Shown: positions 13,393-52,034, counted from the stretch's first letter. The stretch is DNA of 56,536 nucleotides from a virus (IMGVR_UViG_3300036901_000031:1-56536); one strand, 5' to 3'. Made by a program: numbers and translations. The notes: generated by a model from the sequence alone, not told the origin.

Positions 13393-13986
13393 TCACACAT
13401 GGATGCCGCATTCTGTTTTGTCTATTCCGGCCCATCTTCCCTCTCGACCCAAACCAGGGATAGTACATGGGACGCAACCAATTGAGTCATAGCCGCGATC
13501 ATGGAGAACGTTGTAAGGAAGATCGTGTTCATGGATGTAATCCCAAACATTTTGCTCCGTCCAATCAGCTAAGGGAGCCGCCTTCCAAATGCCCCGGCTA
13601 TCGACATCAAGGAGTTGGATATCTGATCGTGTTGGCCCCTGTTCTCTTCTCAACCCGGTAATCCAGCCGTCTACGTTTTCGAGAGCTAGATCCAATGCGG
13701 CAACCTTCCCTAGAGAGCAACAATGATCCTTGTCCCATTTGCCTGCGGCCATATAATCTTTAATCCTAATATCGTATCGGGCCTCAATTTCTGTCCAGAC
13801 TTGGTAAGTCTCGGGAAATAGCTTGCCCGTGTCAATAGTAAAAACGGAAATCTTTGGATCGATTGATAGAACCAAATCAATGAGAACAGAATCCTCTTTC
13901 TGAAACGAGCAGGCCAGCACAAGACGAGGGGCACAATACCTCGCCTCTTGAATAACCTCCTGTGCTGATTCAACCTTGTTCGTCAT
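13393..13986 (-). CDS. cysH: PAPS/APS reductase
   Basis: SFQKED, DTG, CC, WITGLRREQ, GYDSIGCVPCT, ECGIH motifs. Confidence 0.93.
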   Translation of the reverse strand: MTNKVESAQEVIQEARYCAPRLVLACSFQKEDSVLIDLVLSIDPKISVFTIDTGKLFPETYQVWTEIEARYDIRIKDYMAAGKWDKDHCCSLGKVAALDLALENVDGWITGLRREQGPTRSDIQLLDVDSRGIWKAAPLADWTEQNVWDYIHEHDLPYNVLHDRGYDSIGCVPCTIPGLGREGRWAGIDKTECGIHV

Positions 13987-15178
13987 AATAAGTATGGAGA
14001 TCCTTTAATGGTCCTACATCAAATTGTAGACCAGGATGCTCCATTTGTACAGCCTCGGGTGAATGTGCCACAGTAATATGGGGTTTATACCCTCCTTCAA
14101 ATCTAGATACCGGAAGGCCACGAGCTTCAGCCTCATCCATTAGTGCCTCTGTATGCTTTATGAGATCGTCATTGTGAACTCGGAGCACTACAGGGTGGGG
14201 ACGCCCTTGTTCCATCGGGGTAAAGGCATCCACGCTTTGAGTAGCAACCGGATAGGTTAAGCCACTTCTTTGTTGAACCCATTGCTGATGCTCGGGATTA
14301 GAATATCCACTGGGACTATAGATGCCCGTTACATGATAACGGTCTGGTCGAGCAAATTGTGTTTGTTCTGGCCATTGTTGATTATGAGTCCACTCGTTGA
14401 TTTGTTGTTTAATATCGTCGGGTACCATGTAACTTGGGGCAAACCAATCTCCCTTTGATTGCTTAGCAGAAGCAATGTGAGTCCCTGTTAACTCGGCCAT
14501 CTTCTCTAGAAGTCCACGTTGGGCCAAGAACTTATAGAGCACATTAGATTCGGAAAAGTCCCCCTTACCAGCAGCTTGATCTCGTTGTCTCTTAGCATGA
14601 ATCTGATGGTAGAACTGGATTGCCTTATCCGGCTCATAACGAATCAATCGCTCAAGCTTATCAGCACTGAGGAGCGCCCAAGTATAGAATGCATTCTCTT
14701 CTTGCTCTACATTGTGGACTCGGGCGTGCTCAGGAGGCACAATCCACTTGTTAGCATCTAGATCGTAGCCCGATCTCAATCCCGGCTTGTACAAATCCTC
14801 AGGAGTAATCCCCTTGGGTACAACATAGTCCTGCATAGGAAATGGTGTACCGGGGAGTTTGGTGCCGTCTACCTTTCCCACCATTACCCCAATCATCTCA
14901 GCTCTAGACCATTCGGGAAGGACCTCATGATTGACGAATAACGAAACATCTACATCGGACTCATCCGAATACTGAAACGTAGTAAGTGAGCCTGTTAAAA
15001 CAAGGTGTAGCCATTTCTCAATGTCAGTGTAACCCGCATCTTTGAGAGCGGCGTAGATCGTTCTCTTGATCCAGTTCAGGTGTTGGGGCTTCAGCTTTGG
15101 CTCAGGGGACTCTGGATCATCGAAGACGCGAGGATCTAAACCAGCATGAGCCGGGTCGAGAATGTTAGCTATCTTCAT
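13970..15178 (-). CDS. Pol-beta-like nucleotidyltransferase fused to C-terminal 2H phosphoesterase
   Basis: LTGS..YSDESDVDV (GS..DxD); two Hx(T/S) motifs RYHVTG and YKPHITV. Confidence 0.75.
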   Translation of the reverse strand: MKIANILDPAHAGLDPRVFDDPESPEPKLKPQHLNWIKRTIYAALKDAGYTDIEKWLHLVLTGSLTTFQYSDESDVDVSLFVNHEVLPEWSRAEMIGVMVGKVDGTKLPGTPFPMQDYVVPKGITPEDLYKPGLRSGYDLDANKWIVPPEHARVHNVEQEENAFYTWALLSADKLERLIRYEPDKAIQFYHQIHAKRQRDQAAGKGDFSESNVLYKFLAQRGLLEKMAELTGTHIASAKQSKGDWFAPSYMVPDDIKQQINEWTHNQQWPEQTQFARPDRYHVTGIYSPSGYSNPEHQQWVQQRSGLTYPVATQSVDAFTPMEQGRPHPVVLRVHNDDLIKHTEALMDEAEARGLPVSRFEGGYKPHITVAHSPEAVQMEHPGLQFDVGPLKDLHTYYDEQG

Positions 15179-15300
15179 CTAAGTTTTTGTTGTAGTAGGT
15201 GATCTTCCTATTACTCTTTATGACGCCGACACACAAAACGTTATCAGGTAAAGCAACCGAATATACATACTTCCCTTCTGGAAGGGCAGATATCAAATTC

Positions 15301-15585
15301 TTATCGGACATATGAATGCTCTCCGCGACACGTAGTAATTTTCTCCCACACATATAGTTTATGTGATACGGCTCCTCGACCACGACATTGAATACCGGCC
15401 TCTTCTACAGCATCTCGCCACGAAGGAAAGTGTTGTCGAACAAGCCATACAGAAGGATGATCTCCTGTTATAACACTCCAGTCTTTAATGAACGGTCCCT
15501 CTCCATATAGTTTATTCCATCTGCGCATAGCATTTAGAATTCCCTCTTTAGACCACTCCTTGCTGTACTGGTTGTGCATTTGCAT
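15301..15585 (-). CDS. homing-endonuclease-associated repeat protein
   Basis: WSKEGIL...P...W......PS...V..HFPSW..AVEEAG pattern. Confidence 0.55.
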   Translation of the reverse strand: MQMHNQYSKEWSKEGILNAMRRWNKLYGEGPFIKDWSVITGDHPSVWLVRQHFPSWRDAVEEAGIQCRGRGAVSHKLYVWEKITTCRGEHSYVR

Positions 15586-18500
15586 ATTCCTTGGCTCGTT
15601 GGAGCAACGTATCTCGTTGATTTAAGGTGGGATCATCAATCACATCATTTGTTAAGTTTCTTAACACTTGACCCACCTGTGGTCCAGGTGGCACACCTAA
15701 TCCAAGTATATCATTTCCATTAATGGATAGGGCAGATTGTTGAGTTGGATCTTGAGCGGATCGAGACTGTTCTACCAATCCTCGCATCCTCTCCACATCC
15801 GTTATCCCGCCATCGGGAGCTATGACACCAATGTCATTTCCCTTGCCGTCAACGTCAGCATTACGAAGAGCGAGAAGATCGTCAGCGTTATCCCCTACTC
15901 GATTGAGAAACTTGCGTGCCCCCTTGGGTGTATTAAATGCTGGCCACATATGCTGCTCGACAAGCGATTGAATTCTGTGAATGCGAGAGTTAGGGTAACG
16001 AAGCTGTCGCAAACGATCCCCAACCATTTGGGCACCCAATGTTTCGTGATCGGCTCCCTGATGATTTGGTCCCTCATAGTAATGGTTGTATCCCGTAACC
16101 GGATCTACCCATGCACTATTGGGCTTACCCACATCATGAAGTAGGGCGGCCAATCTAAGATCGGGATCGGTTGAATTGCGGCTTATATGATCGAGCACAT
16201 TGAGTGAATGATCTCCAAGCGAGAAATTGTGATGAGGATTATTCTGATCAAAATCAAAGTTGTGTGCTAGCTCAGGAAGTAGCTGATGAAGCACTCCTGT
16301 CTCTTGGGCTAGACGAATGGCTCCAGCCGGATTAGGAGACTGAAAAAGCTTATCTAGCTCTCGCCCTGTGATGTCAGGAGACTCGCCACCAAGCTTAGAT
16401 GCGTTCTCTGTCATCTCTCGACGGGTACGCTCATCCGGAACAAGTCCGTGTCGAGAGGATGCTACCAAAGCACGCACTAAACGAGTAGGGTCCTCTTCAA
16501 ACGAAGAGGGATGGGTCGTTCGCAGAGTCTTACGCTCAATGTCCTTAGCTCCACCAAACGGATCAATTAACTGACCGTTATCTAGGTTAACGGCCATTGA
16601 ATTGACCGTGAAGTCTCGACGCTCAAGATCCTTCTTAATTGGCAGCGTATGATCGACTGTAATCTGTCCCTCTCCACGGCGACCACTCTCGTACTTGTCT
16701 TGTCGTGGCAGAGCGATCTCCACTTCCGATCCACCCGTGTTGTATCGGTAGACACCAAACTTCTTACCCGTGAGGTTAACAGAACCCTTGACCTTACTTA
16801 GAGCGTGTTCAACCTCTTCTGGAGGAAGTCCCGCAACCATAAGGTCGATATCCTTAGGCTCTCGCTGAAGTAGAGCATCTCGAACAGCCCCACCTACAAC
16901 ATAGACTTGACCACCGGCCTTCTTAAGGGTTTGGTAGGCACTCCAAGCAGCAGGATCGGTGGTTGCCAAAGTACGGATATATTGACCAACGCTCTGTGAA
17001 GCGGCAACCTTGGTTGTATTTCCTGCGGCATCTCTAAGTTCTACGCTTGTAACCTCCATTTGTGGATGTGAATGATACCATAGATCGAGCATGTGTCGCA
17101 CCGAGTAAGGTTGATCCGTCATATTCTGAATCGAAACCTTTCCTCCCGGAGCATAATATCCCTCTACGATTCCACCAGGAGTAAACCGGCCACTAATCGG
17201 ATGAGTAATATCTGATGTCTTTGTTCCGGGGTGGCCAATTGTGATGTGATCTTGTTGAACATCAAAGATGAAGGGAATCTCGGCCTCGATCATGTCCTTA
17301 GGATCTGAGCCAGCCGAGTAAACCCACTTCTGGCCTTTGACATTAACAAAGCCCAATCGCCGCATCACTCGTTCCCCTCCTTCCGAACCAGCATGAGAGT
17401 AGACGTTTGGGTGATACTCGATTACCTTCTGGGTCATCGTCAATCCAAGTCCTCGTCCAGGGACGGCATGGATCATGATGATCTCGGTCTTGTCACCATC
17501 TGGTCGGACACAAGTGTAGCCTAATAGCTCACCATTATCATAGCCTCCGTAAAAGATTAGGCCGTCATCTCTATCGTATCCCCATAGTTTTGCGTACAAT
17601 TCAAATCCAGGGACGACAGAAGCCTCACGGAAGCTAGCAAGCGGAATTGCTACAGGCTCGGAATTGTGTCGATGTGCTGGAAGCGGATCATCTATTTCTC
17701 CCGGTCGAGGGAAGTGTCCATCCTCGATTGGATCAACATCAGGATGATGGTTCTGAACGTGCAACATATACTCGCCAAACGAGTCTAGAGGAATGTTGCA
17801 AGCGGGACAGCTAAAGTTTGTATCAGGAGGAAGATCTGTTTTCTTCTCGGGTTCCCAATTAGGATCAATACGATTGAAAGTCTCAAGACCCTCTTCGTTC
17901 TTGATCTTATCGTTAAAGTCTGTCTCCGTTCCAGGATACTCGGCTAATTTGTATCCAAAGTCCTTGGCCCAATCCCTAAGTCCCTCGGAGTAATTATCGT
18001 CGGCCAATGATCCCGAGCGTATTTTTGCCACTCCTCCTGCCACGTCAATAATTCCTGCAAACCTCTGTAGGGGTCTTTCGGAAAGAACCAAACCCTTGTT
18101 CCACGAGTAATACATTCGCCGCTTAGGGCCGAAAAGATCTTGTCCTTCGATTCCATCAAATTGCCAGCCGACTTTTTCTCCGTAGTCTGTGAAGATACTT
18201 GCGAGTCCTCTAAGCCCCGTATTAGTTGCAACGGTCCATCTGGCTCGTCCTCCTCGTACAACAAGTAATCCCGTGGCAAGCGGCCCATTATAATCGGCCG
18301 AAACTCGCGCCAAGTTGTGTAACTCCTCGATTGAGTGGATAGGGGAGACGTGTAGTTTACCGTTTGCCCAGAAGTATTTGTACTGTTTGATTTCGTCGTC
18401 ATTTTCAGGTACCCATGGTTCATCGTGAAAGAATTTTTGATTCATGTCCTCTACCGATTGAGGGGTCGAACCAGGATACGGATCGGCTCCCATCAGATCG

Positions 18501-18904
18501 GCAGTCTTATGACCGGCAAGAATATTGTCTGCTCGCTTTGAAAACAGTTTAGCACGCGGAGTCTCCGGTGTGTCGGTTTTCACTCGCAGATCTTTGAAGA
18601 GACTATGAGAGGTTCGCTTATAGAGAACTGGCCCCGGCTCAGATCCATGCGGATGGGCATCGCCAGTAAGATCTACGGCGTATGTCTTGTCAGGAGACAC
18701 CCAGAAATAGTGACCGTTCTTCACGCCAACATAGCCACCCCAATGCTTTGTCAACCACTTGCTCGTGACAAAGCATTGGCCATGAGCCAGATTAGGATGA
18801 CCGGCAAACTTCTCGTGCCTAGTATCATCGCCCCAGGCAGCCTCAGCAGCCTTACGAAAGGTTGTTAGTTTATCTTGGCTGAGAGAGGTTGGATCAAAAG
18901 ACAT
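15548..18904 (-). CDS. cca: multidomain protein: YunG-like / C2H2 zinc finger / GNAT-like / CCA-adding tRNA nucleotidyltransferase with HD domain
   Basis: C-terminal VGGAVRD..DIDL, DLERRDFTVN, SFEEDPTRLVR, HH..LLHDVGKP; N-terminal GQCFVTS..HYFW; CPAC..H..H; central GYTCV..HAVPGRGLG. Start placed at MSFDPT just after TATAAT (ORF is open to 18976). Confidence 0.85.
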   Translation of the reverse strand: MSFDPTSLSQDKLTTFRKAAEAAWGDDTRHEKFAGHPNLAHGQCFVTSKWLTKHWGGYVGVKNGHYFWVSPDKTYAVDLTGDAHPHGSEPGPVLYKRTSHSLFKDLRVKTDTPETPRAKLFSKRADNILAGHKTADLMGADPYPGSTPQSVEDMNQKFFHDEPWVPENDDEIKQYKYFWANGKLHVSPIHSIEELHNLARVSADYNGPLATGLLVVRGGRARWTVATNTGLRGLASIFTDYGEKVGWQFDGIEGQDLFGPKRRMYYSWNKGLVLSERPLQRFAGIIDVAGGVAKIRSGSLADDNYSEGLRDWAKDFGYKLAEYPGTETDFNDKIKNEEGLETFNRIDPNWEPEKKTDLPPDTNFSCPACNIPLDSFGEYMLHVQNHHPDVDPIEDGHFPRPGEIDDPLPAHRHNSEPVAIPLASFREASVVPGFELYAKLWGYDRDDGLIFYGGYDNGELLGYTCVRPDGDKTEIIMIHAVPGRGLGLTMTQKVIEYHPNVYSHAGSEGGERVMRRLGFVNVKGQKWVYSAGSDPKDMIEAEIPFIFDVQQDHITIGHPGTKTSDITHPISGRFTPGGIVEGYYAPGGKVSIQNMTDQPYSVRHMLDLWYHSHPQMEVTSVELRDAAGNTTKVAASQSVGQYIRTLATTDPAAWSAYQTLKKAGGQVYVVGGAVRDALLQREPKDIDLMVAGLPPEEVEHALSKVKGSVNLTGKKFGVYRYNTGGSEVEIALPRQDKYESGRRGEGQITVDHTLPIKKDLERRDFTVNSMAVNLDNGQLIDPFGGAKDIERKTLRTTHPSSFEEDPTRLVRALVASSRHGLVPDERTRREMTENASKLGGESPDITGRELDKLFQSPNPAGAIRLAQETGVLHQLLPELAHNFDFDQNNPHHNFSLGDHSLNVLDHISRNSTDPDLRLAALLHDVGKPNSAWVDPVTGYNHYYEGPNHQGADHETLGAQMVGDRLRQLRYPNSRIHRIQSLVEQHMWPAFNTPKGARKFLNRVGDNADDLLALRNADVDGKGNDIGVIAPDGGITDVERMRGLVEQSRSAQDPTQQSALSINGNDILGLGVPPGPQVGQVLRNLTNDVIDDPTLNQRDTLLQRAKEYANAQPVQQGVV

Positions 18905-20538: not shown

Positions 20539-20724
20539 CTAGAAGTCGAACTCTGGAATATCATCGTCCCCCAAAGCAACGTCCCTCAAGTCGGCCCAAT
20601 CTTCTCCGCATTGGCGTCGTAACTTCCTCTCCTCTACGGCTTGATGATCACTTAGAATCCTTGCAAACCTGCGGTCCATATCCGCAATGAAAGAAGGATC
20701 GAAGTCATCCTCAAATATGCTCAT
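20539..20724 (-). CDS. small acidic hypothetical protein
   Basis: ATGA overlap with the kinase gene. Confidence 0.45.
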   Translation of the reverse strand: MSIFEDDFDPSFIADMDRRFARILSDHQAVEERKLRRQCGEDWADLRDVALGDDDIPEFDF

Positions 20725-21188
20725 TGTGTCTCTCCTATGTAAGTAACGCTATGATAACCCTCCAACGGGATATCCGCCAGAGCCTTCTCGTACTTTGCGA
20801 TCATCCTAACCATTACGCTGCCAGGAACCGGCTGTATTCTCGCCGCGTTCCTAGTAACAGCCTGAGCAAGATTTGTAAAGACCACAAGATGCTTCTCGGC
20901 ATCATTCTTCTCGGCCACATTTCGAAGCTGCTTCCTAGCATCAGAATCGAGAGCCGTTGAGTCAGCTACAGCGATTCCGTCTTCCCTGTTGCGAAGAAAC
21001 ATCCCCAACAAAGTATGGAAGATATCAAACACCTCGTCATTGAGGGTCTGATCATGCTGGTTGCCCGAGAGCGACTTACGAATGGCGTCGGTAGATACTT
21101 GAGCCTCCGGATACCAGAGGTTTGCCCAAGTGCTCTTGCCACACCCCGGCAGGCCAACCAGTATGATTAGCTTACGATCTGCGTGCAT
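20721..21188 (-). CDS. polynucleotide kinase-like P-loop protein (AAA_33)
   Basis: GLPGCGKST, STDAIR, ADST...R, RNAAR. Confidence 0.85.
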   Translation of the reverse strand: MHADRKLIILVGLPGCGKSTWANLWYPEAQVSTDAIRKSLSGNQHDQTLNDEVFDIFHTLLGMFLRNREDGIAVADSTALDSDARKQLRNVAEKNDAEKHLVVFTNLAQAVTRNAARIQPVPGSVMVRMIAKYEKALADIPLEGYHSVTYIGETQ

Positions 21189-21574: not shown

Positions 21575-21796
21575 TCAGCCATCCTTGTTTTCCTCTTCTA
21601 CTAGATATCCAGAAATGTGACCCAATCCTCGATTAATATTCACGAGAAGCCGTGTATCCCGCGATTCATCTTTACATTCTCTAGCCGCCTGATGTACCTG
21701 ATCGGCAGTTATATAAATTCGACACCAATCTAGGGCGTTATACACCTCTTCAAGGTGCTGTCTTAAAACTACTATTCTGTCAAGTGGATCGGCCAT
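21575..21796 (-). CDS. hypothetical protein
   Basis: Likely start MADPLD overlapping the upstream stop. Confidence 0.45.
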   Translation of the reverse strand: MADPLDRIVVLRQHLEEVYNALDWCRIYITADQVHQAARECKDESRDTRLLVNINRGLGHISGYLVEEENKDG

Positions 21797-42804: not shown

Positions 42805-42849
42805 TTTGTTCCTTTCAATTCCATCGATAACGAATTGTATGAACTACAG

Positions 42850-43600: not shown

Positions 43601-43684
43601 TAGCGGTGGAGGGACTCGAACCCTCAATCTCTCACGAGCGGAGGTTTTTAAGACCGCCGTGTATACCAATTCCACCACACCGCC
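43601..43684 (-). tRNA. tRNA-Leu(TAA)
   Basis: Loop CTTAAAA; long variable arm. Confidence 0.9.
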
Positions 43685-43689
43685 AGATA

Positions 43690-44187
43690 ATGACCAAATC
43701 AAGAAAATATAAAGATTCTGATCTAATCGGTGCTGTTGAAACTTCAGTTTCAATCCGACAAGTCCTAAATCAATTAGGTCTAAAACCCGCTGGAGGCAAC
43801 TATACCACAATCAAAAATCGTGTACGGGAGCTAAGTCTAAATACCTCACACTGGAAGGGCCAAGCTTGGAATAAGGGTCTGAGCGTTTCGTCCTACACTA
43901 AACGTGATCTCAAGGATATTTTAGTTGAAAACAGTCCTCATAAGCAAAGTCATAGCCTAAAAATTCGCCTTCTTAAGGAGGGCATATTACAAGCCATATG
44001 CGACGAGTGTACCATCATCAATTGGCAAGACAAGCCCCTATCATTTCACCTTGAACATATTAACGGAATTCATGATGATAATCGTCTTGATAACCTACGA
44101 CTTTTGTGCCCTAATTGTCACTCCCAAACCCCAACCTATTGCGGAAAGAACATCGGCAAAAGCCGAATCCCTCTGCCATTGGGGTAG
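43690..44187 (+). CDS. free-standing HNH homing endonuclease
   Basis: Start MTKSRKY; CDEC, HLEHINGIHDDNRLDNLRLLCPNCHSQT. Confidence 0.9.
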   Translation: MTKSRKYKDSDLIGAVETSVSIRQVLNQLGLKPAGGNYTTIKNRVRELSLNTSHWKGQAWNKGLSVSSYTKRDLKDILVENSPHKQSHSLKIRLLKEGILQAICDECTIINWQDKPLSFHLEHINGIHDDNRLDNLRLLCPNCHSQTPTYCGKNIGKSRIPLPLG

Positions 44188-44268
44188 TCCTACAAACTCG
44201 TTCTTCTTGACTGTTTCAAATTCCATAACTACAGTATATCATACCCGTCCGATTGTTGGCGGTTGTCG

Positions 44269-44616
44269 TCAATACCCCAAAGCTTCTTCAATGAATTTCC
44301 AATCATCCTCAGTTCCATATGCTATGGGATCTTCTTCGCCAGAGGCATCACGAGCCATCACAATGATGAAATCGTGGGGGTAATCAAGACTGTAATCCGC
44401 CATCTCTTGAGTAATATTTCCTCGTTCTACATGCTTTTTTAGGGCATGACGTGCCCCACGCTCTGTCGTCGGGATAATCACAACTGGACCAGTTTGATAA
44501 ACCATCGCTACTCGTTCGTGACGAAAATCCTCGCCGGTAATTCCAGCATTTTTCATGAGAGTAATAAGATCTTCTCTTTCCTTATCGGATAACGCATATT
44601 GCTTTACTATACCCAT
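44269..44616 (-). CDS. hypothetical protein
   Basis: 115-aa ORF within the tRNA island. Confidence 0.55.
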   Translation of the reverse strand: MGIVKQYALSDKEREDLITLMKNAGITGEDFRHERVAMVYQTGPVVIIPTTERGARHALKKHVERGNITQEMADYSLDYPHDFIIVMARDASGEEDPIAYGTEDDWKFIEEALGY

Positions 44617-44737
44617 TTTTAACTCACTTTATAGAAATTTTGAGCGATCTAGGCTTCCAGTTATTCATTGGCTTGGGAAGCTCCACGAAATGCCAATCAA
44701 GATGTTCCCGCGTCAATCGCTCTGGGGAACCCACGAG

Positions 44738-44812
44738 TTGCAGAGGTAGGAATCGAACCCACGGCTTCCTGGTTCAAAGCCAGGCGAACATGCCAGCATA
44801 TTCTACTCTGCA
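44738..44812 (-). tRNA. tRNA-Gln(TTG)
   Basis: CCTGG-CTTTGAA-CCAGG. Confidence 0.85.
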
Positions 44813-44910
44813 ATAGCCCCGACTCACACGGGAAATCGAATGCATAGTTGAATCCACATTCCATACACGGCTCATCCGTGCTTGGTCATCCTCGATGACG
44901 ATGTATTAAG

Positions 44911-44982
44911 CTGCGGAAGTAGGATTCGAACCTACATCAGACGGCTTCAGAGGCCGCTATCTTGCCATTAGACCACTCCGCA
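44911..44982 (-). tRNA. tRNA-Gln(CTG)
   Basis: GCGGC-CTCTGAA-GCCGT. Confidence 0.9.
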
Positions 44983-45044
44983 TTGTTTACCTCAAAATCC
45001 AAATGTCGGAGTTTGACTATAACAATTGGGACACAAAAACCGCA

Positions 45045-45116
45045 AATCGGGACTGAGAATCGAACTCAGGAGACAGACCTTATGAAAGTCTGCGGGATAC
45101 CAACATCCTTCCCGAA
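45045..45116 (-). tRNA. tRNA-Met/Ile2 (CAT)
   Basis: AGACT-TTCATAA-GGTCT. Confidence 0.75.
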
Positions 45117-45120
45117 CAAG

Positions 45121-45190
45121 GAGCGGACCCGGACTCGAACCGGAACGGGAGGTTATGAGTCTCCAATGATACCAATTTCACTAATCCGCA
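45121..45190 (-). tRNA. tRNA-Met(CAT), possibly initiator-like (1:72 mismatch)
   Basis: Loop CTCATAA. Confidence 0.75.
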
Positions 45191-45212
45191 CATACACTTA
45201 CAATAATTTTGA

Positions 45213-45296
45213 TACCCCTCACCAGATTCGAACTGGTACGCTCTTCCAAGCAACGGGACTTGAATCCGTCGAGTCTGCCTATTTCTCCAGAGGGGC
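45213..45296 (-). tRNA. tRNA-Leu(CAA)
   Basis: Loop TTCAAGT; long variable arm. Confidence 0.85.
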
Positions 45297-45409
45297 GAAT
45301 ATTTTTACCACAATAGGTATCTGTTTGGGAATGACAATTTGGGGCAAAGGCAAGTAACACCTTTGTTTATATGGTCTAAAACCATCCTAGCAGAGTGACA
45401 ACTGCTTAG

Positions 45410-45481
45410 TAGCTCGACGGGGAATCGAACCCCGCCTACAAGGGTGAAAACCTTGCGTTCTAGCCGCTAAACTATCGAGCC
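45410..45481 (-). tRNA. tRNA-Glu(TTC)
   Basis: CAAGG-TTTTCAC-CCTTG. Confidence 0.9.
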
Positions 45482-45577
45482 AGATATACTTCGGAACTTC
45501 AAATTTCGTGCAACACCCTAACCACCTGAACGTGGCCCGCCTTTCAAGGTCGAGCCGTAGTCTCAGATGTTACACAA

Positions 45578-45649
45578 TCGGAATACTGGGAATCGAACCC
45601 AGACGACCACCGTATCAGAGTGGCAGGCTAACCATTACATCATACTCCA
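45578..45649 (-). tRNA. tRNA-Ile(GAT)
   Basis: CCACT-CTGATAC-GGTGG. Confidence 0.85.
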
Positions 45650-45650
45650 G

Positions 45651-45723
45651 TGGAGCCGTTAGAAGGATTCGGACCTTCAACTCCCCGCTCATTGGCCGGG
45701 CGTTTTACTTAAACTATATCGGC
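45651..45723 (-). ncRNA. degenerate tRNA-like RNA with encoded CCA
   Basis: GCCG..CGGC TCCA; T loop GTCCGAAT; irregular anticodon arm. Confidence 0.5.
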
Positions 45724-45728
45724 ATGTG

Positions 45729-45798
45729 TTCCGCAAGAGGATCTGAGTCTCTACCTCCGACATTATGGGCCGGAATGCTTCAATTACACCATACGGAA
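45729..45798 (-). ncRNA. degenerate tRNA-like RNA
   Basis: TTCCGTA/TGCGGAA acceptor; TCCGGC-CCATAAT-GTCGGA; no TTC in the T loop. Confidence 0.45.
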
Positions 45799-45799
45799 G

Positions 45800-45871
45800 T
45801 GGCGATTCTCGGAATCGAACCGAGTGCGCGCACGGCTTCAACGTGCCGCTCTACCATTGAGCTAAATCGCC
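45800..45871 (-). tRNA. tRNA-Phe(GAA)
   Basis: GCACG-TTGAAGC-CGTGC. Confidence 0.9.
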
Positions 45872-45892
45872 AGAACTACCTATACAACATAG

Positions 45893-45975
45893 CGGAAGAC
45901 AAGGGATTTGAACCCTCAACGGTTATCCCGCAACTGCTTTCGAAGCAGCTTCCTCAACCAGTTCGGATATCTTCC
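45893..45975 (-). tRNA. tRNA-Ser(CGA)
   Basis: Loop TTCGAAA; long variable arm. Confidence 0.85.
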
Positions 45976-46207
45976 TTACCTTCTAGTGGTCCATTGGGCC
46001 TTGAGAATGCTCTCAATCCAGGCATCCCAAACAGAAAGCTGCTTAGGGTTATTTTGCGAGGATGACATTGCCCAATGGCCTTGGATCATCTATCTGAATA
46101 CTTGTTAAAACTGCTATTTTCTTTATCTTCTGCATACTATTTATAGTAGTCATTTTAGTGATTTTATATTTGTACATATGTACAAGATTTGGAGGCCACA
46201 AACCTCA

Positions 46208-46292
46208 CGGATAGAACAGGAGTCGAACCTGCAAGGCTGTTATGCTCGCTTCCTTTCCAGGGAAGTCCCGTCACCAATCGGGTTGCCTATCC
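46208..46292 (-). tRNA. tRNA-Ser(GGA)
   Basis: CTTCC-CTGGAAA-GGAAG. Confidence 0.88.
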
Positions 46293-46769
46293 TTTAACCT
46301 CAAAGTCATACTTCATCGGCAAATTAAGTCGATACTTCTTTCCTAGACGATTTAGATGACCAAAAGCAGCCACAGTGTTGTATGTGATCTGAAGATCAAC
46401 CGGACGAGGAAGATCCTTATAGGTTTTAAAGCCTTCGAACGAAGCCTGAACATGAGGATCGTCCTTATCGACAATCTCGATGCCGAGAGCCGTGTAGGAA
46501 TATGGCTTGATCTCGGTGCGGCCTTCATCAATGATGATAGCTGTCTTGAATCCTCGTTCTTTAAGATAGCGCTCAATCACCAGGAGTTGGTCCGCATCCT
46601 CGGCTAGCATAACTAGCTTTGTGTAGTGCTTTCCGTACTCCCAGTGGTCGATCATCTTGGTAGATGAAACCTTATATGCTTCAACAGCAGCATGGGCTAC
46701 CTGAGCAGCCGATTTTCCTGTTGACATCCCCAAATCTCGATTTAGGAACAAATACATGGCAGGTCGCAT
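46287..46769 (-). CDS. pth2: peptidyl-tRNA hydrolase, Pth2 family
   Basis: RDLGMSTGKSAAQVAHA, KLV, IDEGRTEI..TALG. Confidence 0.9.
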   Translation of the reverse strand: MRPAMYLFLNRDLGMSTGKSAAQVAHAAVEAYKVSSTKMIDHWEYGKHYTKLVMLAEDADQLLVIERYLKERGFKTAIIIDEGRTEIKPYSYTALGIEIVDKDDPHVQASFEGFKTYKDLPRPVDLQITYNTVAAFGHLNRLGKKYRLNLPMKYDFEVKG

Positions 46770-46778
46770 AACTCTCCT

Positions 46779-46964
46779 TTATGAATCAAGTTTTGAATAA
46801 ACTCCTAGCACGTCGAATAGTTTATCTACGGCCCAAGCCAGTAGTCCCAATACGACCCAGATCTTCCACGCAGCACCCAAAATAAGTGCAGGAGCAAGAA
46901 GGGTATACAGAGCAAATGCTAGAAAAACGACCGCCGCAACGATCAGGATTTTCTTTAGTATCAT
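46779..46964 (-). CDS. small membrane protein
   Basis: Two hydrophobic segments. Confidence 0.5.
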   Translation of the reverse strand: MILKKILIVAAVVFLAFALYTLLAPALILGAAWKIWVVLGLLAWAVDKLFDVLGVYSKLDS

Positions 46965-47016
46965 GTGTTCCTTTGTGTTTCAACGACTATTTGTTTATTC
47001 ATTTATTCGTTAAAAG

Positions 47017-47097
47017 CGGAAGGCCAGGGAATCGAACCCAGTACGGTTTTACCCGCGACGGCTTTCAAGACCGTTTGCCACCATTTGCCTACCTTCC
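47017..47097 (-). tRNA. tRNA-Ser(TGA)
   Basis: Loop CTTGAAA; long variable arm. Confidence 0.88.
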
Positions 47098-47140
47098 AAA
47101 GCGGATCGTAGCCCCATTTCAGGTCCGCTACGATCCTAAG

Positions 47141-47212
47141 AGGCAATGACTGGATTCGAACCAGCATTGAAACGCTTTGCAGGCGCACACGTAACCGTTC
47201 CGTCACATTGCC
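47141..47212 (-). tRNA. tRNA-Cys(GCA)
   Basis: Loop CTGCAAA; U73. Confidence 0.85.
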
Positions 47213-47483
47213 TTGGTCACAGCCGACACCTTCCGATGCCGACCGTGAGAGTGAAATAGGGATTGCCTACCCTAAACTTCCGCCCAATATCGGTTTATGA
47301 TATTACAGAAGTACCTTTTGTTAGCTGCTAAGCACACCTGCCATCCGCTGCTAACGGACGCCACTAACTTTCTCAGGGACTTCCCCGTTGATGCGTTAGC
47401 TTAGCGATGCCAAAATTGCCTTATCCCCTACTGGGTAAGAGATTATTCAGCCATTTCTAGGTATGACCGTCGCCACACCATAG

Positions 47484-47555
47484 CTCCTGAGACTGGATTC
47501 GAACCAGTATGTCATGCCTTAACAGGGCACCGAATTGCCTATCTCCCACTCAGGA
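47484..47555 (-). tRNA. tRNA-Asn(GTT)
   Basis: GTGCC-CTGTTAA-GGCAT. Confidence 0.85.
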
Positions 47556-47697
47556 AAGTGGTACTACAAGATCCTATGTGAGAACCATAGGATAAATAAA
47601 CGTAGGCTCGGATATCCACGATCCCTAGTGATCTTCAATGTCACCGGAATGACCGGGCTATAGAGAAGTTATATTAGTCTCGTCTTCTACCTACGAG

Positions 47698-47780
47698 CGG
47701 AATACACGGGACTCGAACCCGCAGGGCTGTTACACCGTAAGAGTTTAGCAAACTCTCTGCTTTCCATTCGCATATATTCC
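47698..47780 (-). tRNA. tRNA-Ser(GCT)
   Basis: AGAGT-TTGCTAA-ACTCT. Confidence 0.88.
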
Positions 47781-47783
47781 AAA

Positions 47784-47855
47784 CGTCCCTAGTGGGAATC
47801 GAACCCACAATCGCGCTTTAGGAAAGCGCTGCCTTATCCATCTGGCCCTAGAGAC
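47784..47855 (-). tRNA. tRNA-Arg(CCT)
   Basis: GCGCT-TTCCTAA-AGCGC. Confidence 0.88.
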
Positions 47856-47903
47856 TTAAAACCTCCGCACCCACCCGAGAGCTACAAACTCACTTGGAGA
47901 TTA

Positions 47904-47996
47904 ATGAAGTAACAGGATTCGAACCTGTACCCGTATGCCTACGGTTATCCGTGCGGGAATATAGGTGCCAACCCTCGAATGATATTCCTCACTTCA
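47904..47996 (-). ncRNA. atypical tRNA-like RNA
   Basis: Acceptor TGAAGTG/TACTTCA and perfect T arm, but D and anticodon arms replaced by GGAATAT..ATATTCC and CCGTAGGCATACGG hairpins. Confidence 0.5.
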
Positions 47997-47998
47997 AG

Positions 47999-48067
47999 TG
48001 GTAAGTCTAGAATCGAACTAGAATCTCTGGCGTTTACCAGCGAGGTTTCCAAAATCTCTTCATTACC
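47999..48067 (-). ncRNA. tRNA-like RNA with shortened anticodon loop
   Basis: CTGG-TAAACG-CCAG; T arm TCTAG TTCGATT CTAGA. Confidence 0.5.
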
Positions 48068-48100
48068 TCTCCAGTACCCATGCATTGGTGTTGGAGTTAG

Positions 48101-48502
48101 TGGATCTGGTCGGACTTGAACCGACGTTCTCGATACGCTTACTAGGTTACTTATATCAGCTTAGGGGCAGGCTTTAACCCGCCTCCACCAAAGAGTTTAT
48201 ACGATACTCATAAACGGCCCCGCTACCAATCTAGCTTTTATTCTGGTCATTCTAGACGTGCTAGACAACGCTAGAAGACCGACTCTTATTCTGGTTCCAG
48301 GTCAGAGTTGACCCATGCATTGATTTCTATATCAAGGCTAGGAGTGAATCACCAGCGGTGATACCCTCGGGACGAGTCCCGAAAAGGCTTGCTGGAATGT
48401 TCACGAGTGAATCGTCGTCAGTTATTGACTTGTTTGGTTTAAGGTGACCAACCGCTGAATAACACTAATCGCTTCTTATCGAGTCGAATGCCTGTCAGAC
48501 CC
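48101..48502 (-). ncRNA. ssrA: tmRNA
   Basis: 5' GGGTCTGACAGGCATTCGAC; 3' GTCGGTTCAAGTCCGACCAGATCCA with G3:U70; ATAACTG resume context; tag ORF 48327..48419. Confidence 0.9.
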
Positions 48503-48506
48503 GTAT

Positions 48507-48586
48507 CGATGGACTAGGATTTCCGGCGATCTGCCGTTACCTAGACTTGATTCCCTTTCGGGCTGTCTCTATTTGGACTACCCATC
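48507..48586 (-). ncRNA. tRNA-like RNA with hairpin inserted in the T loop
   Basis: GATGG..CCATC ends, D-like TAGTCCAAATAGAGAC, CTAGGT-AA-CGGC AGATC GCCG-GAAAT-CCTAG. Confidence 0.4.
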
Positions 48587-48588
48587 TA

Positions 48589-48660
48589 TGCCCAATGTTG
48601 GAATCGAACCAACTACTTTCACGTTGTCACCGTGACACTCTCCCAGTGAGTTAATCGGGC
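48589..48660 (-). tRNA. tRNA-Val(GAC)
   Basis: TCACG-GTGACAA-CGTGA. Confidence 0.88.
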
Positions 48661-48692
48661 GGGCATACTAAGCTGTCAGTCATTCTGCCAAG

Positions 48693-48766
48693 TACTCAAT
48701 CTCGGATTCGAACCGAGGATCTTCTGCGTGTAAAACAGACGCTTTCGGCCTCTAAGCTAATCGAGT
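48693..48766 (-). tRNA. tRNA-Val(TAC)
   Basis: TCTGT-TTTACAC-GCAGA. Confidence 0.88.
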
Positions 48767-48783
48767 AGGTCCCCTCAGCCGAT

Positions 48784-49383
48784 TTATTGGCTGCCGTTAC
48801 GGACAAGGGGAGGAATTTTGACACTGTAGTATTGCGCCAAATCTGCTGGCGCTATTGAATCTGGAAGCCGATTGAAGTAGGCTCCCATGCGTTCCATAGC
48901 TCTGGCAACCAGAGCCGAGCACATAATCTGTCCTTGAAATCCAAAGTTTAGTTTGTTGCCGGTTAGGTAGCCGACAAAGACACAGAAGTCGTTGAGGTAA
49001 CCATACTTCTCACCCACAACTCTGTCGGCGTAGTAAATGATCTGTGTCTGATCCAGAGGAGCGGCATGAGTACTTACTAGCGTGTACTCCACGTTCTTAT
49101 ACTTGCTGATGTGAGAACGAGTTGCCCCGGTTCTGGTTAGGGCCTCTACAAGGTCACCCTGATCAGAGACAATCAAAGCCGCATGATTCCAAAAGGTATA
49201 GGCCCTCTTGTCGCCACGGAAACGTATTCCTTGGCACCAGCGGATTGCTGCCCCAATCCATCTACCATGATGGGTAAGGATAAAATCCCCAACCCTGTAC
49301 TTGGGAGCCTCGACACCGGCTGGATATGACTTTGATGTTTCCATGCTTTTTACGTAATAGAACCAGAGAGAATCTGCGTTCAC
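48784..49383 (-). CDS. permuted papain-like amidase (YiiX/YaeF, C92-like)
   Basis: GDFIL, WNHAALI, VGEKYG, IMCSALVA, IAPADL; start uncertain. Confidence 0.75.
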   Translation of the reverse strand: MNADSLWFYYVKSMETSKSYPAGVEAPKYRVGDFILTHHGRWIGAAIRWCQGIRFRGDKRAYTFWNHAALIVSDQGDLVEALTRTGATRSHISKYKNVEYTLVSTHAAPLDQTQIIYYADRVVGEKYGYLNDFCVFVGYLTGNKLNFGFQGQIMCSALVARAMERMGAYFNRLPDSIAPADLAQYYSVKIPPLVRNGSQ

Positions 49384-49540
49384 ATCATCTGGAATCGGGC
49401 CTATCCCTCACGCTGCGCAAGGTGAGGGGGACCGCCAGATGGCTGACTGTCATTCGGGGACTAGATCTTTGGTCCCTGTTTCTCTGGGTAAGATCCGGCC
49501 CTTACTAGGTTGACCAGGTGACCAACCGTTCGGGGCGAAG

Positions 49541-49614
49541 CGAAGTTGAGGGGATTCGAACCCCCGATCTCTACCGTGACAGGGTAGCGCTTTAAGCCAC
49601 TAAGCTACAACTCC
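49541..49614 (-). tRNA. tRNA-Asp(GTC)
   Basis: CTACC-CTGTCAC-GGTAG. Confidence 0.92.
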
Positions 49615-49740
49615 AGAAGCCCCGATGCCGTCTGTCGGCTGCTTGATCACGCTCCCTCAGGGCTTGAGGAGCGACAGCACAGTGAGACAGTTCCTATAGC
49701 AGCATGTCCGGGCTGCGGTGGGGTTCTCTCCCACCCAGAA

Positions 49741-49817
49741 CAGGAGTACAAGGAGTCGAACCTTGCTGTTATTTCCAAGAGTTTTGGAGACTCTTCGCCG
49801 CCCAGCGGCACACTCCC
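49741..49817 (-). tRNA. tRNA-Trp(CCA)
   Basis: AGAGT-CTCCAAA-ACTCT; enlarged variable region, short D arm. Confidence 0.75.
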
Positions 49818-49976
49818 AATTATGGATCACAAGGGCCGTAGGAACCACCCGCATCCATCTTAGTAGGGGCTACCTACCAACACTTTCCAACAAAATAGGC
49901 TCGCACGGGGGATCTCGACCATTCCTCTGGCTCCCCAGCCGGGGTTTGGTTTTTACGAGTAAGCAATGTCCGCCTA

Positions 49977-50048
49977 AGCCAATATTCGGAATCGAACCGA
50001 ATCCTCACCCTTACGAGGGGCGCACACCACCATTTGTGTTTTACTGGC
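49977..50048 (-). tRNA. tRNA-Thr(CGT)
   Basis: CGCCC-CTCGTAA-GGGTG. Confidence 0.85.
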
Positions 50049-50062
50049 GCTACTTAGGTTTA

Positions 50063-50133
50063 ATCCCTCATCGAGAATCGAACTCGAACGGCATCCTTAC
50101 CACGGATGCAGGCTACCATTACATCATAAGGGA
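50063..50133 (-). tRNA. tRNA-Thr(GGT)
   Basis: CATCC-GTGGTAA-GGATG. Confidence 0.82.
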
Positions 50134-50235
50134 AAGACTGGGAGTTGCCCGGAGCTACCCGATGTGGCCGCTTAAGCTTATAGCGGCTCTCAACTCCCTA
50201 TTTTGATCAACCTCCTTAACTAGGGGCCAATAAAG

Positions 50236-50307
50236 TCCGGGTGCGGAGGGTCGAACTCCGGCTTCCTCGTTCCAAGCGAGGGGTGCATCCGCCAACACTT
50301 CACCCAG
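50236..50307 (-). tRNA. tRNA-Pro(TGG)
   Basis: CCTCG-CTTGGAA-CGAGG. Confidence 0.82.
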
Positions 50308-50358
50308 GAAATCAAGACGGGGGAACCCCTATGAGGGCCGGATGTACATTCCGTCTAA

Positions 50359-50432
50359 TCAGGATAGGAGGATTTGAACCTCCGACAACTCGCTTCCAAG
50401 GCGAGGACTCTACCAGACTGAGCTATACCCTG
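50359..50432 (-). tRNA. tRNA-Pro(TGG)
   Basis: CTCGC-CTTGGAA-GCGAG. Confidence 0.9.
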
Positions 50433-50579
50433 TAGAGCGGCGAGAGGCTTTGACACCCAACACCGCAAGTCTATTCGGTACCGGCTCTGCCGCCTCTGCG
50501 GTGATCACCAGTAGGCAGACGGGTCATGACTCCCGCTCCCTCTTACGTCTAGCTAGGTCCGTAAGTCCGAAAAGTTACA

Positions 50580-50651
50580 TGGAGAATAGGGGAGTCGAAC
50601 CCCTAATTCCTGCGTGCAAAGCAGGTGTGTTCCCATTAGCACTAATTCCCC
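50580..50651 (-). tRNA. tRNA-Ala(TGC)
   Basis: CCTGC-TTTGCAC-GCAGG; G3:U70. Confidence 0.9.
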
Positions 50652-50783
50652 GTGACCCAGAAGTGATTGGCCCCTCTGGGTTTACTATCATATTTACCGG
50701 TACGTTCACCAACCGAACGATAGAGCAGGGCTAGACCCCTCTATGATGAAGAACCTTTCTAGCAAGGCTTGTTGGTCCAACAG

Positions 50784-50857
50784 TGCCTCTCCTGGGATTC
50801 GAACCCAGACTGATACGCTTCTAAGGCGTAGTCCTCTACCAATTGGGATAGAGAGGC
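50784..50857 (-). tRNA. tRNA-Leu(TAG), short variable loop
   Basis: TACGC-CTTAGAA-GCGTA. Confidence 0.85.
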
Positions 50858-51035
50858 AAATTGTCGATCACGGCATTCTGTGCCTATCGACCCTCCTATA
50901 CGCCGATTGCTTCTCGTCGTATAGAAGCCGCTGCGATATATTAGGAAACTACTCTGTACTTGGAAACCCGATCTTGGCCGGGACTTTTATGTTTCATAGT
51001 ATCATGACAGCGCTTCTGACCACCGCTGAGGTGGA

Positions 51036-51117
51036 TGCGACCAAAGGGACTCGAACCCTTATATCCGAAGACACACGCCTCTCAAACGTGCCTGTATACC
51101 AATTCCAGCATGGTCGC
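51036..51117 (-). tRNA. tRNA-Leu(GAG)
   Basis: CACGT-TTGAGAG-GCGTG; long variable arm. Confidence 0.88.
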
Positions 51118-51194
51118 GTCATTCGGGATTTGAGAGTCTAAATCTTCATTTCCCTAAACGAGTATCAAAGTTATCGCTCGTTCTAATCGATTAG

Positions 51195-51269
51195 TGGACC
51201 AGATGGGATTCGAACCCACATCCTCCTGAGTGCAAAACAGGCGCTCTACCAATTAGGAGCTACAAGCCC
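51195..51269 (-). tRNA. tRNA-Ala(TGC)
   Basis: Loop TTTGCAC; G3:U70. Confidence 0.85.
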
Positions 51270-51420
51270 AGACTACTCTTAGAGGGGATCGGTCTAAGAG
51301 GTACGGCTAGATTATATGTAACGGAAGATCCCAACCGCCGAAATGTCTGTTAAGTTCTTTTCGGACAAAGATAATCCCAACTTAACTGGGATTCTGATGA
51401 CCTTGCAAGTATCATCATAG

Positions 51421-51507
51421 TGCTGGCCGAGGGATTCGAACCCCCATGGATTGTTTTGCCCGCTCGGGTTACAGCCGAGTGCAGCTAACCGTATCTGCGT
51501 GACCAGC
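51421..51507 (-). tRNA. tRNA-Tyr(GTA)
   Basis: CTCGG-CTGTAAC-CCGAG; long variable arm. Confidence 0.85.
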
Positions 51508-51900: not shown

Positions 51901-51927
51901 GGTCCTATCTTATGTAGGCCAAGGGAT

Positions 51928-51990
51928 TTAGATGGTGCTTCCACCTCTTGCAAATTGATTATACGTCGGGTTTAAAATCAGTTCTTTCAT
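51928..51990 (-). CDS. putative leader peptide (20 aa)
   Basis: MKELILNPTYNQFARGGSTI* between the promoter and the terminator. Confidence 0.45.
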   Translation of the reverse strand: MKELILNPTYNQFARGGSTI

Positions 51991-52004
51991 GTCCATCTAT
52001 TATC

Positions 52005-52034
52005 ATTATAGCATACTCTATTTTGTAGTGTCAA
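52005..52034 (-). promoter_or_regulatory. consensus sigma70/SigA promoter heading the tRNA island
   Basis: TTGACA-18nt-TATAAT with TG extension. Confidence 0.85.

Follow-up and report, generated by a model that had tools for sequence, protein, structure and literature searches.

A divergent RNase P RNA of bacterial type was found inside the tRNA array of a phage, in the virus record IMGVR_UViG_3300036901_000031. The window analysed here is this entire IMG/VR record, a linear DNA of 56,536 bases with a CheckV completeness of 35%; searches in the window cover the whole record and hence ~35% of a roughly 160-kb genome. The best explanation of the data, to which we give a probability of about 60% as a whole, is that the window is part of a ~160-kb myovirus-like phage, a distant relative of the cluster C actinobacteriophages, which carries a module for the supply and maturation of tRNAs and for translation; this module would contain a genuine, divergent RNase P RNA, would depend on host proteins and would lack a ligase.

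RNase P RNA of the window and its relatives

When the whole window was searched with E-value reporting, the match to the Rfam model RF00011 was found to span model positions 1-365, which is the full model length. The RNA sits 13 nt downstream of a tRNA-like gene (38906-38978) and 9 nt upstream of tRNA-Thr(TGT) (38340-38413). Folding of this single sequence formed both the P3 and the P4 pairing, with a minimum free energy z-score of -4.31. A branched stem of ~180 nt is specific to the window copy and is absent in the copy from the closest complete relative, G001, a genome of 160 kb which shows 80% identity over the CCA part of the CCA-adding fusion protein described below.

The relatives were gathered by means of the CCA enzyme and of the whole fusion protein, which gave 34 further viral records (35 with the window), seven of which are at least 90% complete. 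Full-length matches to the class A model RF00010 were present in six of the 34, including four of the seven at least 90% complete, with scores of 63.4 (G003), 56.9 (G005), 46.2 (G007), 40.2 (G013), 39.2 (G001) and 38.6 bits (G006). In G001 the RNA is likewise found next to tRNA-Thr(TGT), within an array that is syntenic with that of the window and holds 34 tRNAs and a tmRNA, and in all seven records of this clade the RNA lies in the middle of the contig at the same position of the array. The copies vary in length between 272 and 470 nt, and their divergence proceeds in step with that of the phage proteins; an exact 18-mer of the core was found only in G001 and G003. A blastn search at the distant setting with the window and G003 copies gave no match in deposited phages, its sensitivity being too low for so divergent an RNA.

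Alignment of the seven copies with MAFFT showed invariant GAGGAA, (T)C.GG, GA..GATG and ACAGAA blocks, as well as a bulged U in 7/7. The core blocks, which we take to be CR-I (GAGGAAAGUCC-like), CR-IV and CR-V (ACAGAA.CCGGCUUA-like), are invariant in every copy and align to the Rfam consensus. RNAalifold recovered P3, the long-range P4 and P5 de novo, with compensatory change in 22 of the 48 predicted pairs. P2 was added and P4 was written as a pseudoknot by hand before the pairing test, in which 93.5% of the cells of the completed structure paired, as compared with 79.3% in column shuffles (0/500 reached the observed value); this control overstates the support, the structure having been derived in part from the same seven related sequences. 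Sliding the partner columns by 1-3 lowered the pairing to 26-44%, and changes on both sides occurred in 23 of the 50 pairs of the hand-completed structure. The eight pairs of P4 were 100% paired and four of them covary, and in P3 six of seven pairs were changed on both sides, among seven related sequences in either case. P4 does not belong to the nested pairs in the structure line printed by cmscan for RF00010; its covariation thus seems not to depend on the score of that model.

Several observations, the overstated shuffle control among them, weigh against a genuine RNase P RNA. The 38.5 bits of the window copy are far under the RF00011 cut-off of 97, so that none is reported at gathering thresholds, and a profile search of the window record and five relatives with RF00011 gave no match; the latter result is treated here as a difference in sensitivity between two search routes. 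The window copy fits best to the class B model and the relatives to class A. All six relatives are under the RF00010 cut-off of 100, and there was no match in 28 of the 34 records, including three of the seven at least 90% complete. The specificity domain of G003 hardly aligns to the Rfam model, although the catalytic domain does, with GGGU in the P15 loop. The specificity domain (P7-P14), which in bacterial RNase P RNA binds the T-loop of the tRNA, is unaligned in G003, is expanded in the window, and is represented by 73 nt in the 235-nt copy of a further record, G065. The first-pass annotation of this DNA had proposed the RNase P RNA and had named failure in covariance models as the ground for giving it up; the candidate does fail the cut-off, but it is kept because of its homologues, their synteny, the invariant core and the covariation, and from this comparison of sequences the window RNA is judged to be real although its score is too low for Rfam.

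RNase P RNA across viral records

A scan of IMG/VR for a 15-base CR-V motif gave at least 117 loci, and in at least 42 of them CR-I was present no more than 560 nt upstream on the same strand. RF00010 was applied to the 41 records behind the listed loci; 40 matched at E <= 1e-3 and, among the matches listed, 30 exceeded the cut-off. Many of the surveyed matches lie on small contigs or proviruses and are probably host DNA. Large and near-complete carriers were nevertheless present, namely G044 (463 kb, 100% complete, 208 bits), G054 (162 kb, 100%, 280 bits), G068 (202 kb, 97%, 173 bits) and G070 (203 kb, 96%, 84.9 bits). According to ARAGORN, run on nine loci, the RNA is directly flanked by tRNAs in dense arrays in seven, L158 and L074 being the two where it is not.

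The portal protein of G054 is homologous to that of the window (36% identity, E 1e-126), and its RNase P copy is both above the cut-off and flanked by tRNAs. A homologue of the window portal was absent in the other 20 of the 21 RNase P-bearing records tested, so several phage lineages are involved; phrog_2, the sole terminase family searched, matched only two of five large RNase P-bearing records. Very short copies of 209-243 nt were found in the viral tRNA arrays of G066, G043, G074, G065 and G070. The 235-nt copy of G065 (L154 8917-9151) keeps the catalytic domain and is without the P16-P18 region; with their catalytic domain intact and their specificity domain much reduced, these short copies are, judged by their sequences, candidates for naturally minimised RNase P RNAs.

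No RF00010 match was found in the cultured relatives Tonenili, Skog and E3 (0/3). A blastn search with the G054 copy gave 11 matches among deposited records, none of them the complete genome of a named, cultured phage: eight unannotated metagenomic 'Bacteriophage sp.' records, two contigs deposited under the name Acinetobacter phage MD-2021a and one contig of a Salmonella genome, where the match is annotated as the RNA component of RNase P. The first-pass annotation had regarded the occurrence of the 5' ribozyme and the 3' enzyme in one phage as unusual. This holds among deposited phages, but the combination is not unique: of 21 other viral records with an RNase P RNA, among the matches listed, 7 also have an enzyme with a PolyA_pol head. 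An RNase P RNA within tRNA arrays recurs across several lineages of large uncultured phages, in some of them in miniaturised form, and this is apparently unreported.

The tRNA array, tmRNA and Pth2

The ARAGORN predictions, 40 tRNAs and one tmRNA, span 37803 to 51507 and share the minus strand. Rfam at its gathering threshold confirmed 31 tRNAs and added two that ARAGORN had missed (42850-42921 and 44738-44812), which their folds allow to be read as Lys(UUU) and Gln(UUG). The array covers 20/20 amino acids, and CCA is encoded after the discriminator base in only one of the 42 genes, Ile(AAT) at 45651-45723. The first-pass count of 41 tRNAs for all 20 amino acids, essentially none with an encoded CCA, agrees with the 41 credible genes and one doubtful gene reported here. 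The doubtful gene is the tRNA-like element immediately upstream of the RNase P RNA, which has 70% GC and a shortened anticodon loop and may be a processing handle rather than a decoder. Isoleucine tRNAs with the unusual anticodons TAT and AAT (42992-43066 and 45651-45723, both on the minus strand) were observed beside GAT and three CAT tRNAs.

The tRNAs are interspersed with the RNase P RNA, the tmRNA, the Pth2 gene, NAD-salvage genes and a manA-like RNA. The tmRNA has no encoded CCA. Its likely tag ends in AGDSLLALI; the 30-residue tag given by ARAGORN is probably over-extended, because the tag predicted for G001 is AGDSLLALV. Full-length tmRNA matches were obtained in seven of the 35 records, and the tmRNA of G001 was found by ARAGORN. 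The Pth2-type protein passed the Pfam cut-off and scored 69 bits with the NCBIfam Pth2 equivalog, under its cut-off of 126. Pth2 is present in five of the seven RNase P-bearing clade records (G000, G001, G003, G005 and G006) and in none of the 28 others; these records are related to each other, so that the co-occurrence with RNase P is no independent association. The distance between Pth2 and the RNase P RNA is no more than 350 nt in G003 and G005. The window Pth2 had no tblastn match in deposited phages.

Contigs from four metatranscriptome (RNA-library) runs overlie parts of the array. The tmRNA gene is nearly fully covered by them (X6, 48115-48535; X11, 48136-48417), and contig pieces occur also within 38204-38754, while X6, X7 and X8 leave uncovered the bin 38755-39305, into which the 5' part of the RNase P RNA falls. 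These contigs give a weak hint that the array is expressed. A contig of run X8 ends at 47245, near the manA motif.

Between the tRNA genes there is also a two-gene NAD+ salvage pair, composed of a NAMPT and a NadM-like NMN adenylyltransferase/Nudix protein, which possibly counters a NAD-depleting defence.

The CCA-adding fusion protein

The fusion protein of 1118 residues belongs to a parent open reading frame at 15548-18976 on the minus strand, Met25 being the probable start. The CCA/HD part corresponds to residues 691-1126 of this frame, its C-terminal third, and comprises a PolyA_pol head, an RNA-binding neck, an HD domain and tRNA_NucTran2_2. Pfam scores were 103.9 bits for PF01743 (cut-off 23), 33.6 bits for PF12627 (cut-off 22) and 32 bits for HD, and the PHROG tRNA nucleotidyltransferase matched with 204 bits. 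PDB matches by sequence and by fold were CCA-adding and related enzymes (Foldseek E 1e-16 to 1e-15). The NCBIfam ranking placed the actinobacterial CCA enzyme (199 bits) above PcnB (122) and the A-adding type (76). In 16 homologues the residues of the GGxVRD, DxD, RRD and EDxxR motifs, which we take to be those of class II CCA-adding nucleotidyltransferases, are invariant.

Homologues of the N-terminal ~650 residues form 83 clusters, in nearly all of which this part is joined to the same enzyme; a few occur by themselves (~646 aa), and one carries a Fic domain. Pfam searches of the homologues placed a YunG-like stretch at the start and also found a C2H2 zinc finger and a GNAT domain. The AlphaFold2 model (pLDDT 74) resembles YhhK and PanZ, both of them GNAT proteins, at E 3e-3. 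An Atlas search with the N-terminal part gave one match at 0.77, to a GNAT cluster, which is a lead only. The N-terminal module was covered by none of the 452 deposited phage records with a CCA-type match.

Other candidate RNA-end enzymes

The protein at 13970..15178 contains in its 2H part the motifs HVT and HIT (HxT), with a Pfam score of 19.9 bits under the cut-off of 27. Its AlphaFold2 model has a pLDDT of 84.5, and Foldseek matched the 2H half to a solved CPDase, an RNA 2',3'-cyclic phosphodiesterase (E 3.6e-7), and to LigT (~3e-4), but also to the anti-CBASS protein Acb1 (E 3.7e-4) and to viral 2',5'-phosphodiesterases. A PDB sequence search with this protein and a profile search with its N-terminal domain gave no matches. 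The N-terminal 235 residues show 60-67% identity across more than 300 clusters, in which they are joined to varied C-terminal domains (2H, Fic/DOC, methyltransferase and others) or stand alone; in its sequence distribution this domain resembles a carrier with swappable effectors. Its assignment as a Pol-beta nucleotidyltransferase is only a lead, PF01909 being found in 23-33% of the members of the Atlas clusters nearest to it.

The kinase, a HAD-like phosphatase, a metallophosphoesterase and the cREC protein (cyclic-phosphate processing receiver) are listed in the table; the HAD-like candidate had no NCBIfam match. The cREC gene occurs in five of the 35 records and lies 10 kb outside the span 13970-52034 to which the first-pass annotation had assigned the system, and no RNA-repair domains were found among its neighbour genes. 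A small reading frame with a homing-endonuclease-associated repeat was observed between the 2H gene and the fusion gene, and a CysH-type gene, an auxiliary metabolic gene, directly downstream of the 2H gene.

As regards proteins that would complete such a system, neither RnpA (PF00825) nor SmpB (PF01668) was found in any of the 35 related records, including the seven at least 90% complete. The window has no match to RtcB (PF01139) or to the PF09414 ligase, and tblastn of the window with the long open frames around the ligase genes of relatives found nothing, which agrees with the first-pass observation that no RNA ligase, RnpA or SmpB is visible. The PF09414 ligase is present in G003, G005, G007, G027 and G029, and a ligase in only three of the seven RNase P-bearing clade records. 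An RtcB match in G001 was rejected as an intact ligase, being a 65-aa fragment beside a ThyX-like gene; this remnant suggests that a ligase was lost.

Table. Coordinates of the features discussed (positions in the window unless a relative is named)
Feature	Position	Strand	Evidence
Divergent bacterial-type RNase P RNA, 470 nt	38423..38892	-	Rfam RF00011, 38.5 bits, E 4.2e-7
Extra branched stem, specificity-domain region of the RNase P RNA	38612..38790	-	Alignment; fold -56.1 kcal/mol, z-score -3.92
tRNA array, single orientation	37803..51507	-	ARAGORN, Rfam, folds; 41 credible tRNAs + 1 aberrant tRNA-like gene
Aberrant tRNA-like gene, 'Trp'	38906-38978	-	ARAGORN Trp(CCA); Rfam 32.6 bits
tmRNA	48098..48502	-	Rfam RF00023, 55 bits (cut-off 47); ARAGORN
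Pth2-type peptidyl-tRNA hydrolase, inside the tRNA array	46287..46769	-	Pfam PTH2, 82.3 bits (cut-off 23)
NAMPT; NadM-like NMN adenylyltransferase/Nudix protein	40405-41853; 41899-42804	-	NAMPT 136.6 and 105.3 bits
manA RNA motif, between tRNA-Cys and tRNA-Asn	47248-47477	-	RF01745, 51.4 bits (cut-off 55.2), E 2.8e-10
Fusion protein, 1118 aa: YunG-like, beta-rich region, C2H2 zinc finger, GNAT-like, class II CCA-adding nucleotidyltransferase (15548-16906), HD	15548..18904	-	Domain searches, fold matches
Small ORF with homing-endonuclease-associated repeat	15301-15585	-	HNH_repeat, 27.1 bits
Candidate Pol-beta-like nucleotidyltransferase (residues 1-235) + 2H phosphoesterase (~250-400)	13970..15178	-	Motifs, Foldseek
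CysH-type phosphoadenylyl-sulfate reductase	13393-13986	-	NCBIfam, 210 bits (cut-off 154)
P-loop kinase, polynucleotide-kinase-like	20721..21188	-	AAA_33, 65.2 bits; PHROG polynucleotide kinase; NCBIfam bacterial Pnkp kinase domain, 64 bits
HAD-like phosphatase, weak candidate	21796..22545	-	Pfam HAD families, 22-25 bits, all under cut-offs
Metallophosphoesterase	25038..26366	-	PHROG 111 bits; Pfam Metallophos 17.8 bits, under cut-off
cREC protein	3856..4230	-	Pfam PF20274, 79.8 bits
RIIA and RIIB homologues	6274-9255	-	318 and 198 bits to PHROGs
RtcB remnant (65-aa N-terminal fragment), then ThyX-like gene	G001, L015 1408-1605 and 1645-2535		RtcB match

The virus record

The record encodes the phage hallmarks portal (PHROG, 492 bits), large terminase, RIIA and RIIB. 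The portal matched 228 deposited phage records, all at less than 60% identity; 209 of these are Mycobacterium phages (Bixzunavirus, ~41%), and the remaining matches include Gordonia phage Skog and Rhodococcus phage E3. The presence of RIIA and RIIB homologues was observed in a phage which is otherwise akin to actinobacteriophages. Megablast of 37000-52000 against deposited phages gave no match. Near-identical DNA is present in peat metagenome runs of several studies; runs X9-X15, in which its share is small, are uninformative on habitat. The GC content is ~46-52% over most of the length (~48%). The right end differs, 54001-56536 having ~60% GC and many overlapping reading frames on both strands.

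Proposed mechanism and alternative explanations

The analysis shows the genes with their conservation and synteny, and an RNase P RNA whose core covaries; on this basis the following activities and protein partners are proposed. The array of single orientation would supply the tmRNA and a complete tRNA set in which CCA is almost never encoded. The position of the RNase P RNA between two tRNA-type genes implies that its ends could be released by ordinary tRNA processing, to which its own activity may contribute. The RNA would probably pair with host RnpA and raise or secure the removal of 5' leaders from polycistronic precursors. The CCA/HD part of the fusion protein, to go by its family, would build the 3' CCA on the phage tRNAs and on the tmRNA, which carries none. 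The HD domain of the E. coli CCA enzyme has phosphatase and 2',3'-cyclic phosphodiesterase activity; the HD, 2H, cREC, kinase and phosphoesterase proteins of the window could clear cyclic-phosphate and phosphate ends, so that damaged tails might be rebuilt without a ligase. Going by the gene content, the phage could heal or rebuild 3' ends and could not reseal broken anticodon loops. The tmRNA with host SmpB, and Pth2, may recycle stalled ribosomes and peptidyl-tRNA, respectively.

This reading of the module is weakened at several points. RnpA is missing throughout the related records, and neither ligase family is in the window. All NCBIfam scores of the fusion protein are under their cut-offs, and a CCA-adding enzyme and a poly(A) polymerase are not separable by sequence alone. 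The RNA-library contigs can derive from DNA and give no RNA ends, strand or level.

The stronger proposal of the first-pass annotation was a self-contained phage system which, with no need of host processing, rebuilds the whole tRNA pool after defence-triggered destruction of tRNA. All the components that it named are indeed present: the full tRNA set, the 5' ribozyme, the CCA-adding enzyme with its HD domain and invariant class II motifs, the 2H protein with its two HxT motifs and CPDase-like fold (though under the Pfam cut-off), the kinase, whose best NCBIfam match is a bacterial Pnkp kinase domain, the cyclic-phosphate receiver protein, a tmRNA that exceeds its Rfam cut-off, and Pth2. Moreover, defence systems are known to attack the tails and the anticodon loops of tRNAs (PMC12851939). 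The term self-contained is not supported, however, as RnpA, SmpB and a window ligase are missing, G001 has only the 65-aa RtcB fragment, most RNase P-bearing clade records are without a ligase, and the defence trigger is itself inferred; with RnpA, SmpB and ligase absent the system would rely on host proteins, and the self-contained version is considered improbable. A little less probable still is that the RNase P-like RNA is a non-working ribozyme, either a captured host gene in decay or a decoy that soaks up host RnpA and stops host tRNA maturation. It would fit with the low scores of all seven clade copies, with their divergent or reduced specificity domain and variable length (272-470 nt), and with the lack of an encoded cognate protein. 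Decay, on the other hand, would not preserve P2-P5 by compensatory changes, nor is it expected from core motifs invariant in 7/7; for a decoy, too, the core that binds RnpA would be indispensable, so that its conservation fits this version as well.

The accessory enzymes admit another explanation, which is unlikely as a whole and yet has the largest share among the alternatives: the 2H, cREC, nucleotidyltransferase, kinase and NAD genes could serve in counter-defence against nucleotide-signal or NAD-depletion immunity and lie near the tRNA machinery by chance. The 2H model matches Acb1 and viral 2',5'-phosphodiesterases, its N-terminal domain carries interchangeable C-terminal domains that include Fic and methyltransferase, a NAMPT and a NadM-like enzyme lie inside the array, and cREC is 10 kb away among neighbours without RNA-repair domains; PMC7824862, where the name cRec was introduced, links this domain to NAD/ADP-ribose systems and also to RNA ligases. 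The best matches of the 2H half are nevertheless RNA 2',3'-cyclic phosphodiesterases (CPDase, then LigT), and the kinase is nearest to Pnkp. For the 2H, cREC and NAD genes counter-signalling roles fit equally well, and since this explanation concerns accessory enzymes only, it is compatible with the host-dependent module as the explanation of the RNAs and of the CCA enzyme. That the RNase P RNA is bacterial DNA brought onto a viral contig by misassembly or binning is hardly credible. In many small IMG/VR records above 300 bits the match does lie close to the end of the contig, or the record is classified as a provirus, and these are likely host DNA, but in the clade the RNA is mid-contig at the same array position in seven independent records, lies 9-13 nt from phage tRNA-type genes, and diverges in step with the phage proteins.

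Comparison with known systems and significance

With bacterial class A RNase P RNA (RF00010; rnpB or M1 RNA) the phage copies share the helix order P1-P5 with the long-range P4, the motifs GAGGAA.(G/U)UC.GG, GA..GAUG and ACAGAA.CC, GGU in the P15-loop region, and a location beside tRNAs, the substrates of the ribozyme. They differ in being embedded in a tRNA array, in scoring 38-63 bits against a cut-off of 100, in a divergent specificity domain that gained the 180-nt branched stem in the window and is reduced in relatives, and in the lack of rnpA in the related genomes. RNase P RNA is regarded as a universal cellular ribozyme which, to our knowledge, is known beyond cells only from organelle genomes.

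Cluster C-type phages carry large tRNA sets with a tmRNA. The cluster C mycobacteriophages (Bixzunavirus, e.g. Tonenili), Rhodococcus phage E3 and Gordonia phage Skog have portals of ~37-43% identity to that of the window and genomes of 142-161 kb; unlike them, the window carries the RNase P RNA (RF00010 0/3 in these phages), the N-terminal fusion module (0/452 deposited records) and Pth2, at a GC content of ~48%. The multifunctional CCA-adding/repair enzymes with HD (NF008137; actinobacterial TIGR02692) share with the fusion protein the head-neck-HD order and the invariant catalytic motifs, whereas the phage protein has ~650 extra N-terminal residues (YunG-like, zinc finger, GNAT-like) and scores under the equivalog cut-offs. 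According to the main text of Al-Shayeb et al. 2020 (PMC7162821), huge phages carry tRNAs, tmRNA, a CCA-adding enzyme and in some cases SmpB, which is absent from the window clade (0/35); RNAs were annotated there only by tRNAscan-SE and ARAGORN, and neither RNase P nor rnpB occurs in that main text. The jumbo-phage paper of Iyer et al. 2021 (PMC7824862) describes roles for cRec, 2H, PNK and the CCA enzyme when phages repair RNA, with no occurrence of RNase P in its available text. The window shares with such systems (T4 Pnkp plus Rnl; PMC7824862) the parts that heal or restore ends, i.e. polynucleotide kinase, 2H, cRec, phosphatases and the CCA-adding enzyme, as far as they are described there, but it has no sealing enzyme, and its genes are scattered over 20 kb with no operon. 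A literature search, with subscription journals and supplements outside its reach, turned up no earlier description of an RNase P RNA encoded by a phage; the accessible parts of PMC6582537, PMC12636597 and PMC12851939 were not relevant to it.

It is tempting to speculate, at somewhat less than even odds, that unrelated lineages of large phages acquired the bacterial RNase P ribozyme inside their tRNA arrays, where it would be released from the very transcript that it processes, and that some of them shrank or remodelled its specificity domain; the outcome would be a phage-tuned RNase P, working with host RnpA or alone, for tightly packed precursors of CCA-less tRNAs. The conserved protein in which a GNAT-like module is joined to a CCA-adding/HD enzyme, as predicted from its 1118 residues, may offer a second lead into the manipulation of tRNA 3' ends by phages. 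If the phage RNAs are active, the usual annotation of phage genomes, by tRNA and tmRNA finders alone, misses a recurrent gene, and the miniaturised and expanded copies would form a natural set for structure-function work on P RNAs. They would then represent the first viral RNase P, together with a natural series of minimised RNase P RNAs, and phages would control both ends of tRNA maturation.

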